The translations under genes and the position numbers were made by a program. A stretch of 29,523 nucleotides of DNA, from the UHGV virus genome UHGV-1542943. One strand, 5' to 3'. Below the pieces are notes generated by a model. The model saw only the letters and a program-made list of their open reading frames with translations. It had not been told where the DNA came from and made no database searches. Position 1 is the first letter of the stretch; every line of letters begins with the position of its first letter. This DNA comes from a virus. Positions 5,381-7,532 of this stretch are shown here, piece by piece.

Positions 5381-5965
5381 TTATTGTTTGTTTTTTTCGT
5401 TCTGGTTGATGACAAATTCAATGTAACTTTCGATCTTTGCTTTCTCGGTTTCGGGTAACAATGCGTAGCGCGAGCGATCATAGTTGATGGTCGCAGGGTC
5501 GTGCGGGTGAATCAGTAATTCATAGCCGTGACGCCCGAATGCGGATGCAACATTCTCCAGGGTGGAAATGGAAACGCTGACCTCATTGTTTAACAGGCGG
5601 CTGATTGTCACCTGGGCGACGCCGGATGCGCGGTGTAGTTTTCCCTGCGTTGAAAGGTCGCGGCTTTCGCTCATCCAGCGTTCCAGGTTGTGAGCCGCCA
5701 GCTGACCTATATCGCTCGGGCCGACAGGCTGAAAACCTTCCTGAGAAAGCGAGCGATCGATATCAAGCCAGTTACGGGGTTTATTGGCGGCAGCTTCAAT
5801 TTTTCGTGCAACCTGGTCGCCGATAACCTTCTTGCCAAGAGCCCAGCGGTTTACCAGATTTGCCTGAGTTCCAAGTTTTTCTGCCATCCGCGTCTGAACA
5901 CCATTGAATTCACGGTCGATCAAGTCGTTGAGATTTTGCCTGCGGACGTCCTGGATACTTTTCAT
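5381..5965 (-). CDS. Prophage repressor-like protein with two helix-turn-helix domains and no LexA-type peptidase domain
   Basis: 194 aa. First HTH around VQTRMAEKLGTQANLVNRWALGKKVIGDQVARKI; second XRE-like HTH around LHRASGVAQVTISRLLNNEVSVSISTLENVASAFG. No S24 Ser/Lys autocleavage module seen. Divergent from the Cro-like gene. Confidence 0.65.
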   Translation of the reverse strand: MKSIQDVRRQNLNDLIDREFNGVQTRMAEKLGTQANLVNRWALGKKVIGDQVARKIEAAANKPRNWLDIDRSLSQEGFQPVGPSDIGQLAAHNLERWMSESRDLSTQGKLHRASGVAQVTISRLLNNEVSVSISTLENVASAFGRHGYELLIHPHDPATINYDRSRYALLPETEKAKIESYIEFVINQNEKNKQ

Positions 5966-6020
5966 TTTCTGGAAAATCGCCTCATATATGAATCAGTAGA
6001 TGATTCAATTTAAAGCAATA

Positions 6021-6035
6021 TTACCCAACAGGTAA
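6021..6035. promoter_or_regulatory. Operator TTACCCAACAGGTAA (perfect), rightward operator site 1
   Basis: Perfect palindrome in the divergent repressor/cro intergenic region. Confidence 0.6.
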
Positions 6036-6037
6036 AT

Positions 6038-6052
6038 GCACCTCATAGGTAA
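6038..6052. promoter_or_regulatory. Degenerate operator GCACCTCATAGGTAA, rightward operator site 2
   Basis: Right half-site perfect, left half degenerate; 17 bp centre-to-centre from site 1. Confidence 0.4.
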
Positions 6053-6068
6053 CTATCCTTGATTTTTG

Positions 6069-6083
6069 TTACCTTATGGGTGA
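6069..6083. promoter_or_regulatory. Near-perfect operator TTACCTTATGGGTGA, rightward operator site 3, overlapping a candidate rightward promoter
   Basis: Lies between a TTGATT -35-like hexamer and a GAATAT -10-like hexamer upstream of the Cro-like gene. Confidence 0.45.
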
Positions 6084-6119
6084 ATATTTATTATCTGAAA
6101 TAAATATCAGGCAATAGCT

Positions 6120-6350
6120 ATGAGCGATAACGGACATTTCGATTTCAAAAAGCACTGGCTTGCACTTACTCCGGATGAGCGTGAAGCCTTCGCACAGGAA
6201 GCCGGAACGACGAGTCACTATATCCAGACTCACTTAACAGGTAAGCGCAAAATGCCAGGTAAAGTATTGATGAATGGGCTTTTTAAAGCCTGTAAAACAA
6301 GACAATGGCTGCGCTCAAAAGCAGAACTGGCATACTTCTTCTACTCATGA
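6120..6350 (+). CDS. Cro/YdaS-like small HTH regulator
   Basis: 76 aa, divergent from the repressor; LTPDEREAFAQEAGTTSHYIQTHLTGKRKMP resembles Cro/YdaS-type HTH proteins. Confidence 0.6.
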   Translation: MSDNGHFDFKKHWLALTPDEREAFAQEAGTTSHYIQTHLTGKRKMPGKVLMNGLFKACKTRQWLRSKAELAYFFYS

Positions 6351-6372
6351 TATCCAGCTACAACCCTCTGTA

Positions 6373-6395
6373 GACCGCCACCCGGCGGTCTTTTC
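6373..6395 (+). terminator. Rho-independent terminator between the Cro-like gene and the replication genes
   Basis: GACCGCC-accc-GGCGGTC followed by TTTT. Confidence 0.6.
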
Positions 6396-6500
6396 ATATC
6401 TATTCGTACCTCAAAGGTAATAAATAACCAAATCTGGTTGATCTTTTTTTTGTGTCAGCACAAAATGACCGTAATCCCAATACTAATAACAGGGCTTACC

Positions 6501-6701
6501 ATGGAAATCATTACACGTATTGATGCCGCAAAGCGCGGACTTAAACGCTACTACACCGGAAAACCATGTAAGCACGGACATGACAGTGAACGCTGGGTTT
6601 ACAACGGACACTGTGTTGAGTGCACCATGGAATCAAACCGTCGCATCAGGGCAGAGATTAAGCAGATCATGATTAATTCCTCCCCACAACACTCAAGCTG
6701 A
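6501..6701 (+). CDS. Small putative zinc-binding protein (C-x-H-x-H...C-x2-C) at the cII position
   Basis: ATG at 6501 with an AGGG RBS; MEIITRIDAAKRGLKRYYTGKPCKHGHDSERWVYNGHCVECT. Any role as a regulator is inferred from position only. Confidence 0.4.
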   Translation: MEIITRIDAAKRGLKRYYTGKPCKHGHDSERWVYNGHCVECTMESNRRIRAEIKQIMINSSPQHSS

Positions 6702-6716
6702 TAGCGGAGATTAATC

Positions 6717-7532
6717 ATGAGCAGACATGCAACAGATTGGGCCTGGGAGACAGATCCAGGTAGCTCATCATTAAAGCTCATACTGCTCTCGATGGCTGAC
6801 AGAGCCGATGAATATAACCTCTGCTACCCCAGCATAGAACGCCTCGTTAAAGACACTTGCCTGAATAAAAAAACCGTGCAGGCCGGGCTTATATCGCTCA
6901 TGAAAATGGGGCTTATTTCAGATACCGGAGAGAGAAAGGGAGCGACAAAAAGAGTGCGGGTTTTCTCTCTTAATATAACCAAAAACGGGAACATTAAAGG
7001 CAACCGAGAGGGGGGCAATGAACCCGAAAACGGTAATGTTACCGAAAACGGGAATATACCCAAAAACGGGATGTTGAATGATCCCAAAAACGGGATGTTG
7101 AATGATCCCAAAAACGGGATCCAGAACCAGTCATATAACCAGTCATTTAACCAAGAGAGGGAGAGCAGGACAAAAAACGGGGATTCTGTGCATCATGACC
7201 CCGGCGCAAACAACGCCGTGATGAATAACTTTGTTCCTCCTGGTGGGCCAGGGCAATTAGGCAAATTTGTCATGCATGAACAATGGCAGCCATCAGATGA
7301 TTTTCTTCGGAAAAGCTCATTGCAGGGGATCTACCTGGACAGTCTGCCAACGGCACAGGAACTTGCAGAGTTCAGAATTTACTGGATGGCTGAGGGTAAG
7401 GCATACCATCAGGCACAGTGGGAGCAGAAGCTGGCAAGGCGGCTGCAGATTAGCAGACAGAAGCAATCAACATTACCTGATAACAACGTTCCGCACTGGA
7501 ACAGCCCTGAAGCATGGGAGGATTTCTTGTGA
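6717..7532 (+). CDS. Replication initiator (lambda O-like role; HTH N-domain, repeat-rich middle, DnaT-like C-region)
   Basis: 271 aa; N-terminal HTH-type replication domain (DWAWETDPGSSSLKLILLSMADRADEYNLCYPSIERL); tandem PKNGMLND repeats encoded by the iterons; followed immediately by a lambda P-like gene. Confidence 0.7.
   Translation: MSRHATDWAWETDPGSSSLKLILLSMADRADEYNLCYPSIERLVKDTCLNKKTVQAGLISLMKMGLISDTGERKGATKRVRVFSLNITKNGNIKGNREGGNEPENGNVTENGNIPKNGMLNDPKNGMLNDPKNGIQNQSYNQSFNQERESRTKNGDSVHHDPGANNAVMNNFVPPGGPGQLGKFVMHEQWQPSDDFLRKSSLQGIYLDSLPTAQELAEFRIYWMAEGKAYHQAQWEQKLARRLQISRQKQSTLPDNNVPHWNSPEAWEDFL
7017..7122. repeat. Iteron array (candidate replication origin) inside the O-like gene
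   Basis: Five copies of (A/T)CC(C/G)AAAAACGG(G/T)A, including a perfect 24-bp tandem duplication GATGTTGAATGATCCCAAAAACGG; an AT-rich stretch follows. Resembles lambda ori iterons within O. Confidence 0.6.

Follow-up and report, generated by a model that had tools for sequence, protein, structure and literature searches.

A probable ori-lambda-type iteron array within the initiator gene of a phiV10/epsilon15-like Escherichia coli phage

In the phages lambda and P22 the replication origin lies within the gene for the initiator protein and is translated as the linker of that protein, an arrangement that has long been textbook knowledge. The DNA considered here, the virus genome UHGV-1542943 of 29,523 nucleotides (nt; the whole of it is referred to below as the window), is that of a phiV10/epsilon15-like (Uetakevirus) E. 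coli phage or prophage and holds, on the + strand at 6717..7532, the gene for a 271-residue initiator whose middle part is filled by short, dyad-symmetric direct repeats, or iterons. This array is very probably the iteron set of a phage origin of the ori-lambda type, situated midway along the initiator gene, where the linker is encoded. The repeats, their conservation at the level of DNA, their co-inheritance with the N-terminal domain of the initiator, the predicted disorder of the linker, and the P-type neighbouring gene are observed directly.

Among the closest of the described systems is the lambda origin, which shares with the window the placement of dyad-symmetric direct repeats in that middle part of the initiator gene (gene O in lambda) which codes for the linker, the form of the iteron (ATCCC-TC-AAAAC-GA-GGGA in lambda, ATCCC-AAAAAC-GGGAT in the window), and its spacing, which is 20–24 bp in lambda and 18–24 bp in the window. 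Both also have an A-rich flank on the coding strand, a P-type helicase loader encoded next, and the order repressor, cro-like gene, initiator, and P. Lambda, however, has four annotated iterons of the ATCCCTCAAAACGAGGGA type, spaced 20, 24, and 23 bp apart, where the window has seven copies, and its sites are 18 bp long rather than 12–14 bp with shorter arms. The window furthermore lacks the AT-rich tract of lambda (G+C content, GC, of 0.45 against 0.22), its N-terminal domain is a remote homologue without PF04492, and its C-terminal domain is DnaT-like instead of Phg_2220_C. The origin in gene 18 of P22 resembles the window in that four iterons, again spaced 20, 24, and 23 bp, are followed by two copies of a 14-mer, ACAAAAGACAATAT, just as the window's iterons are followed by a tandem of 12-mers. 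In contrast to the window, P22 gp18 is a member of the Pfam family Phage_rep_O, a DnaB-type helicase gene follows instead of a P-type loader gene, the iteron (ACCNNATCGGTAAAAC) is unrelated, and the tandem is AT-rich (GC 0.27). Shiga toxin (Stx) phages such as 933W and P27 have six iterons, the additional ones lengthening O by an insert that the DNA dictates, and the number of iterons differs between phages (PMC7466680). The polymorphism of 24 bp, or eight residues, seen around the window is the same phenomenon, although Stx phages have a true lambda O with lambda-type iterons and a variation that is fixed per phage type rather than a range of three to eight copies.

A pairing of genes like that in the window is known from bacterial chromosomes. 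DopC and DopE of Cellvibrionales and some Oceanospirillales consist of a protein with HTH_36 and a DnaT C-terminal domain, followed by a protein of the lambda P family (Brezellec et al. 2017, PMC5509034). No iteron-like sequences were found by those authors in dopC, which is not an origin; the pair is chromosomal, domesticated, and vertically inherited, and a pair of HTH_36 + DnaT_C and P genes is described as its source (PMC5509034). The window has the same succession of an HTH_36 + DnaT_C protein and a P-family protein but not the resident, iteron-free chromosomal setting, being Uetakevirus-like with seven iterons. Its gene pair has the look of a phage-type counterpart to DopC/DopE in their domesticated form. 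Iteron-bearing loci of Marinomonas were considered as domesticated dopC, a finding that would have been at odds with PMC5509034, and rejected: locus L112 is prophage-like, and a PAPS (phosphoadenosine phosphosulfate)-reductase-type gene follows there, with no P homologue. Unlike DnaT of E. coli, the window's protein has no DnaT N-terminal domain, and it would be localised through iteron binding rather than through PriA/PriB. Iteron plasmids such as RK2, F, and pPS10 likewise combine a winged-helix initiator with direct-repeat iterons and with 13-mers in an adjoining unwinding element (PMC4081077), but their Rep proteins have two winged helices and the rep open reading frame (ORF) does not contain their iterons, whereas the window's protein has a single winged helix and the sites lie within its gene.

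The core CCNAAAACGG is matched six times in the 29.5-kb window, always on the + strand and always between 6979 and 7117, where shuffled sequences give an expectation of 0.24 and none of 100 shuffles attains six copies. With up to two mismatches to CCCAAAAACGGG allowed, seven copies are found on the + strand, at start-to-start spacings of 45, 18, 18, 24, 24, and 63 nt. Iteron 1 (ACCAAAAACGGG, 6978..6989) is an outlying copy; it is followed by iteron 2 (CCCGAAAACGGT, 7023..7034), iteron 3 (ACCGAAAACGGG, 7041..7052), iteron 4 (CCCAAAAACGGG, 7059..7070), which opens a perfect 24-bp tandem, iteron 5 (CCCAAAAACGGG, 7083..7094; GATCCCAAAAACGGGATG with its flanks), and iteron 6 (CCCAAAAACGGG, 7107..7118), which with its flanks reads GATCCCAAAAACGGGATC and has 6-bp inverted arms. 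Iteron 7 (ACAAAAAACGGG, 7170..7181) is again outlying and is degenerate, showing more than two mismatches in 44 of 82 close loci (81 relatives and the window). The dyad arms of the iterons are TCCC/GGGA. Tandem Repeats Finder (TRF) reports the 24-nt unit CCCAAAAACGGGATGTTGAATGAT at 7059..7120 (+ strand, 2.6 copies, 100% matches) as well as an 18-nt unit at 7022–7071, and in the ORF 6717–7532 the array is translated as TKNG and, further on, PENGNVTENGNIPKNGMLNDPKNGMLNDPKNG (segment PKNGMLNDPKNGMLNDPKNG), the 24-bp tandem encoding PKNGMLND-PKNGMLND-PKNG. An earlier, sequence-only reading of this DNA had proposed five copies of a unit of about 13 bp at 7017–7122, with internal dyad symmetry and a perfect 24-bp tandem duplication translated into the peptide just given, as origin iterons that lie within the initiator gene. 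The symmetry, the duplication, and the translation are confirmed, and the embedded iterons of an origin find strong support in the comparative evidence set out below. As to the count, five 12-mers do start within that interval (at 7023, 7041, 7059, 7083, and 7107), but the copies at 6978 and 7170, which that reading did not list, bring the total to seven. Three GATC (Dam) sites at 7080, 7104, and 7118, the only ones within 6900–7300, each overlap an iteron arm, and binding of the initiator might be modulated by Dam methylation or SeqA. The minus strand carries an ORF of 95 residues with GSFNIPFLG repeats (6824–7111) and two terminator-like hairpins (7067–7110), the latter formed by the arms of adjacent iterons and not above chance; neither was retained as a feature of its own, as both look like by-products of the repeat.

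Comparison across the family indicates that selection acts on the iteron DNA and not on the peptide. For the family set 80 loci were taken from one-genome-per-species contigs, and 84 non-identical homologous genes were analysed, of genera that include Escherichia, Edwardsiella, Vibrio, Acinetobacter, Marinobacterium, Pseudoalteromonas, and Desulfovibrio. Within these genes CCCAAAAACGGG, at up to two mismatches, has 238 matches on the sense strand (3.29 per kb), as against 33 matches on both strands outside them (0.06 per kb), a 54-fold enrichment, with 90% of the in-gene matches falling at gene nt +270 to +480. They are distributed over all three reading frames (154, 59, and 25). In a codon test that starts from the P[KE]NG peptides and so is not circular, proline is encoded by CCC in 92 of 92 cases, compared with 14% elsewhere in the family genes (p = 4e-64, although the sequences are phylogenetically related and such p-values overstate their independence). 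Lysine is AAA in 68 of 68 (67% elsewhere), asparagine AAC in 83 of 92 (49%), and glycine GGG or GGT in 85 of 92 (51%). Selection on the peptide cannot account for fixed synonymous sites in combination with the use of three frames, which point to selection on the DNA.

More distant phages, with N-terminal domains 35–58% identical to that of the window, have related dyad repeats at the same place: ATCCCAAAATTGGGAT three times in Edwardsiella phage GF-2, CCCGAAAACGGTAC five times in Vibrio phage H20, and ACCCAAAAACGGAAT, ACCCATATACGGGTC, and ACCCAAATTTGGGTC in Acinetobacter phage AP22. Across these relatives the CCC/GGG arms stay the same, and what varies is the centre, along with the residues encoded (PKNG, PKIG, PIYG, and PKFG). 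In GF-2 and PPompW one iteron copy yields TQKRD or TQKRE through a different frame, besides those of the PKNG/PKIG type. In a metagenome-assembled genome (MAG) of Pseudomonadota (L110), eleven iterons occupy gene nt 308–546, several of them spaced 17 nt apart, so that successive copies pass through all three frames of a single ORF. Arsenophonus nasoniae (L105) has a second cluster of four iteron-like 12-mers about 750–1030 nt upstream of the gene, which may be a duplicated or remnant origin. In a Symbiopectobacterium MAG (L165) the gene is truncated at 90 residues, and an unrelated tandem of the AGATAGGTAACTGCTGTTTAATTA type follows after locus position 1773.

The number of repeats is polymorphic among close relatives. 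The region was found in 422 of 5426 complete E. coli genomes (about 8%), and E. coli homologues of 271, 279, 287, 291/292, and 311 residues differ by whole repeat units, the window having three PKNG units and other E. coli prophages four, five, or eight. Length variants of the DNA differ by -24, -18, or +18 bp, and the spacing pattern 45/18/18/24/24 is dominant among the 82 close loci. The comparison of repeat number in related prophages that the sequence-only reading had proposed thus shows variation in steps of 24 or 18 bp, 24 bp being equal to eight residues. Its suggestion that the initiator carries a repeat linker determined by the DNA also holds up well, given a motif present in 84 genes and in three frames, fixed synonymous sites, and a linker predicted to be disordered.

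What binds the repeats is suggested by the part of the protein with which they are inherited. Among 70 diverse homologues the HTH_36 domain is present in all 70, the DnaT domain in 15, and the lambda O C-terminal domain Phg_2220_C in one, and most of 150 representative homologues align only over query residues 1 to about 150, that is, over the N-terminal domain and the repeat linker. The 'O' protein of GF-2 has this N-terminal domain and the iterons joined to a C-terminal domain homologous to that of lambda O (PDAAIQ...NTDWIYGV), with a P gene next to it. The converse is seen in the Salmonella phage SPN1S (L086), of the same genus as the window, where the gene at 1030–1845 has the same DnaT-like C-terminal domain behind a different N-terminal domain and is without these repeats. 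A scan of SPN1S for a repeat array of its own gave only weak two-copy matches, no P-type gene lies downstream, and its origin presumably follows a different plan. Window-type iterons become more numerous as the identity of the N-terminal domain rises (rho 0.38, p 3e-4), and in divergent members other dyads take their place, for instance CCAACNNNGG within one Acinetobacter subgroup or TCGGAAAAATCCGA in Sphingobium. At gene nt ~250–420, a Sphingobium MAG (L149) carries AACCAGTCGGAAAAATCCGAC five times and a Desulfovibrionaceae MAG (L167) dyads of the CCGCCGGAAACGG type. Differing dyads at the same position are consistent with iterons that co-evolve with the N-terminal domain. Read most simply, the evidence has the winged helix recognising the dyad, in the way that lambda O recognises its own iterons through its N-terminal domain.

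The initiator has Pfam matches to HTH_36 at residues 18–67 (E 1.8e-10) and DnaT PF17948 at residues 184–252 (E 1.1e-15) and a match to PHROG 1032, 'replication initiation protein' (E 1.4e-108); the gene is 97.9–99.4% identical to those of phiv142-3, EC.W1-9, and phiV10. AlphaFold2, given an alignment of 70 sequences, models the N-terminal domain (residues 1–88, 6717..6980, + strand), the presumed iteron-binding module, with a predicted local distance difference test (pLDDT) score of 94–98, as four helices with a beta-hairpin wing (E67-74/E80-85), which Foldseek places among winged helices of the MarR/BlaI/TFE type. It is followed by about 90 residues (90–180; coding region 6984..7256, + strand) with a pLDDT of 44–50, a predicted disordered linker that coincides with the repeat-encoded part. 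The repeats encode residues 88–155 and thus lie between the folded parts, 1–88 and 181–255, and the sequence of the linker is dictated by the iterons and the 12-mers behind them. The C-terminal domain, modelled confidently over residues 181–255, is a DnaT-like domain that binds single-stranded DNA (ssDNA) in DnaT (residues 184–252, 7266..7472, + strand): its PDB profile matches are 6aep, 4ou6, and 2ru8 (E ~1e-5), and Foldseek aligns it with 4ou6, the complex of E. coli DnaT(84-153) with ssDNA, at a template modelling (TM) score of 0.90 and 51–54% identity. While the C-terminal ssDNA-binding three-helix domain of DnaT is present (PF17948), its N-terminal domain, which interacts with PriB and oligomerises, is absent from the initiator, whose N-terminus is the HTH_36 winged helix, and matches to full-length DnaT structures (9zbt and 9zbu) span only DnaT residues 86–152. 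The database label 'primosomal protein' is therefore half right.

Directly behind iteron 6 of the array stand tandem 12-mers, AACCAGTCATAT, AACCAGTCATTT, and AACCAAGAGAGG (7125..7160, + strand), of which TRF reports the 12-nt unit AACCAGTCATAT in 2.4 copies at 7125–7153. They fit a family-wide element, GAAYCNNYCA, that has 144 matches in the zone behind the array compared with 31 elsewhere (5.36 against 0.053 per kb) and is present in 77 of 84 loci, its copies being spaced 12 or 13 nt apart and hence read in two frames. Tandems of the AACCAGTCAT type occur in the window at 7125–7160, in L083 at 1972–1997, and in L168 at 1927–1954. The 12-mers at 7125–7160 are a candidate unwinding or helicase-loading region, and since the 12/13-mers accompany the N-terminal and not the C-terminal domain, whatever reads them is probably not a feature of the DnaT-type domain alone. 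The family shows a GC dip of 0.17 about 30–45 nt further on; no such dip is present in the window.

Under the proposed mechanism, dimers of the N-terminal domain (residues 1–88) would bind the (A/T)CCC-AAAAAC-GGG(A/T) dyads at five to seven sites 18–24 bp apart and so build a nucleoprotein complex resembling the O-some of lambda. The adjoining 12-mer tandem at 7125–7160, whose top strand is A-rich, would next be destabilised, and the DnaT-like C-terminal domains, on flexible tethers of about 90 residues, may then contact the exposed single strand, the P-like loader, or both, with the P-like protein bringing in the host's DnaB. A role for the C-terminal domain at the origin is plausible because the corresponding domain of DnaT forms filaments on ssDNA and marks the site of helicase loading in the restart preprimosome (PMC13377028). 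Lambda O binds A/T-rich ssDNA as well (PMC7466680), and a precedent is provided by the winged-helix Rep proteins of plasmids, which read the 13-mers of the unwinding element as single strands (PMC4081077). Being inside the ORF, the iterons are translated as [P/T][K/E]NG repeats, and the linker would tolerate both this translation and the gain or loss of units of 18 or 24 bp.

Several observations weigh against an ori-lambda-type origin, in addition to the relatedness of the sequences behind the p-values above. The initiator has no match to PF04492 Phage_rep_O at E <= 0.01, a profile that finds lambda O at 5.7e-36 and P22 gp18 at 6.9e-38, and hhalign of the family profile with lambda O gives a probability of 2.3%, which is not significant. 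Direct profile-profile homology to lambda O was rejected on this basis, a remote link being seen only with PHROG profiles: residues 1–148 match the O-like phrog_678 (E 3.5e-12) and phrog_345 (1.7e-8), which lambda O matches at 1.7e-35 and 5.2e-17 and P22 gp18 at 2.5e-38 and 6.7e-88, respectively, the N-terminal domain, lambda O, and gp18 all being matched over the same region. The C-terminal domain is of the DnaT type (PF17948) and not of the lambda O type Phg_2220_C. Of the description as an O-like initiator in the sequence-only reading, then, remote relatedness stands and membership of the Phage_rep_O family does not, and 'O-like' appears fair as a term for remote homology and functional analogy. 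The AT-rich stretch that the same reading saw behind the array is not borne out, the conserved 12-mer tandem being found there instead; the 51 nt past the last iteron have a GC of 0.45, near the window mean of 0.473, whereas the equivalent stretches of lambda and P22 have 0.22 and 0.27, and the asymmetry of A over T (A 20, T 8) is the sole feature shared with them. A strongly AT-rich unwinding tract adjoining the array, as in ori-lambda, was accordingly discarded as a candidate, the stability of 40-bp segments there lying in the 12th–15th percentile. The least stable duplex near the origin (2.7th percentile) is instead at 6946–7005, upstream of the main array, with a GC of 0.30–0.35 around outlying iteron 1. 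At 18 and 24 bp, the spacings lack helical phasing, and in the literature searched no binding or origin-firing experiments were found for this phage or members of its family. The minimum of the window's cumulative GC skew, at about 6000–7000, was rejected as a sign of an origin, since leftward genes give way to rightward ones at the same place; it is confounded by this divergence of transcription and is not independent evidence.

Plasmid iterons are known to take part in control as well as in initiation. The repeats might bind the initiator but serve mainly for control (by autoregulating the O/P-like operon, by titration or handcuffing of the initiator, or as a roadblock to transcription), with the duplex opened elsewhere, for example in the less stable 6946–7005 or in the AT-rich intergenic DNA at 6400–6480. 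The modest AT content behind the array, the position of the least stable 40-mers, and the GC of 0.33 at 6400–6479 are in keeping with this, yet in position, in spacing, and in the short tandem that trails them the repeats parallel lambda and P22, whose origins have just this arrangement, and a second cis function beside the array is suggested by the conserved 12/13-mer element found there in 77 of 84 loci. Control as the main role is on balance unlikely, and opening at 6946–7005 would differ only in detail from the preferred reading, because that stretch lies within the same origin region, around iteron 1.

Still less likely is binding by a protein other than the initiator's N-terminal domain, whether of the host or of the phage. 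The product of the upstream ORF at 6501–6701, a 66-residue Cys/His protein that matches PHROG 1081 and has no known function, could be such a binder, but the repeats co-occur with the HTH_36 domain across genera regardless of neighbouring genes or C-terminal domains and are missing where this domain is replaced, as in SPN1S, and no DnaA-box or IHF consensus is found at 6300–7700. The least probable alternative is that the repeat is a slippage-prone, low-complexity peptide linker rich in N, G, and P, with any selection acting on the protein and the DNA having no cis function. Predicted disorder, polymorphism in whole units, and the point substitutions carried by older copies among close relatives would all be expected of such a linker, but it is already strongly disfavoured by a DNA 12-mer that is kept in three frames and as different peptides (PKNG, TQKR, and others), sometimes within one gene, by the fixed synonymous positions (CCC and AAA throughout), and by CCC/GGG arms that persist while the centre and its residues change.

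Beyond the origin in the window, a wider and considerably more tentative possibility is that HTH_36, the three-frame dyad iterons of the CCCAAAAACGGG type, and the GAAYCNNYCA tandem together make up a large undescribed origin module, which phages of many Gammaproteobacteria would share with those of some Desulfovibrio and which would be shuffled onto varied C-terminal effectors. The 12/13-mers would then be a sequence-specific unwinding and helicase-loading element, not merely AT-rich DNA, which the initiator would read in single-stranded form. An initiator with the DnaT C-terminal domain would resemble a one-polypeptide analogue of DnaA or of the preprimosome, in which a localiser for double-stranded DNA, a flexible tether, and an ssDNA-filamenting domain mark the place where P:DnaB is to be loaded. 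Nothing relevant emerged from a search of the literature on the iteron sequence, the phiV10 origin, and iterons of DnaT-type phage initiators, and none of the papers it found describes these iterons or the 12/13-mer element; the genome papers of epsilon15 and phiV10 were not among its results, so that a brief earlier mention is possible. The principle is already known, and what deserves following up is the module seen across the family and what may be an unwinding element with sequence specificity.

For phiV10/epsilon15-like phages, which are in use as reporters and for biocontrol, the array provides a concrete candidate origin, and variation in repeat number explains why databases contain many length variants of the 'primosomal protein'. 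This label can be corrected to an O-like, predicted origin binder with a DnaT-type C-terminal domain. The pattern across the family also shows cleanly how a cis-acting DNA element can dictate the sequence of part of a protein, and an iteron-bearing phage counterpart of DopC/DopE could help in testing the role of the DnaT-like domain at an origin.

The genes around the initiator are arranged in the order repressor (-), cro-like (+), small ORF, initiator, and P-like. The helicase-loader gene of the lambda P type (7529..8314, + strand) matches Phage_lambda_P PF06992 (E 4.5e-57) and PHROG 109, 'P-like helicase loader' (E 3.8e-93), so that a partner gene for helicase recruitment lies directly downstream, as in an origin of the lambda type. 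Its GTG start overlaps the initiator stop (GTGA), and the same 4-nt overlap is found in the annotation of phiV10, the RefSeq record of which has no annotated origin in the region of the replication genes. The small ORF (6501–6701, + strand), at the position of lambda cII, has the Cys/His pattern CKHGH...CVEC and no Pfam match. A pR-like promoter match from a consensus scan, by itself not above chance, lies upstream of the cro-like gene (6066..6094, + strand), and rightward transcription from it would cross the origin. The protein at the repressor position (5381–5965, - strand) has two HTH regions, one YdaS-like at residues 21–61 and the other HTH_3 at residues 106–147, in agreement with the annotation of phiV10p40.

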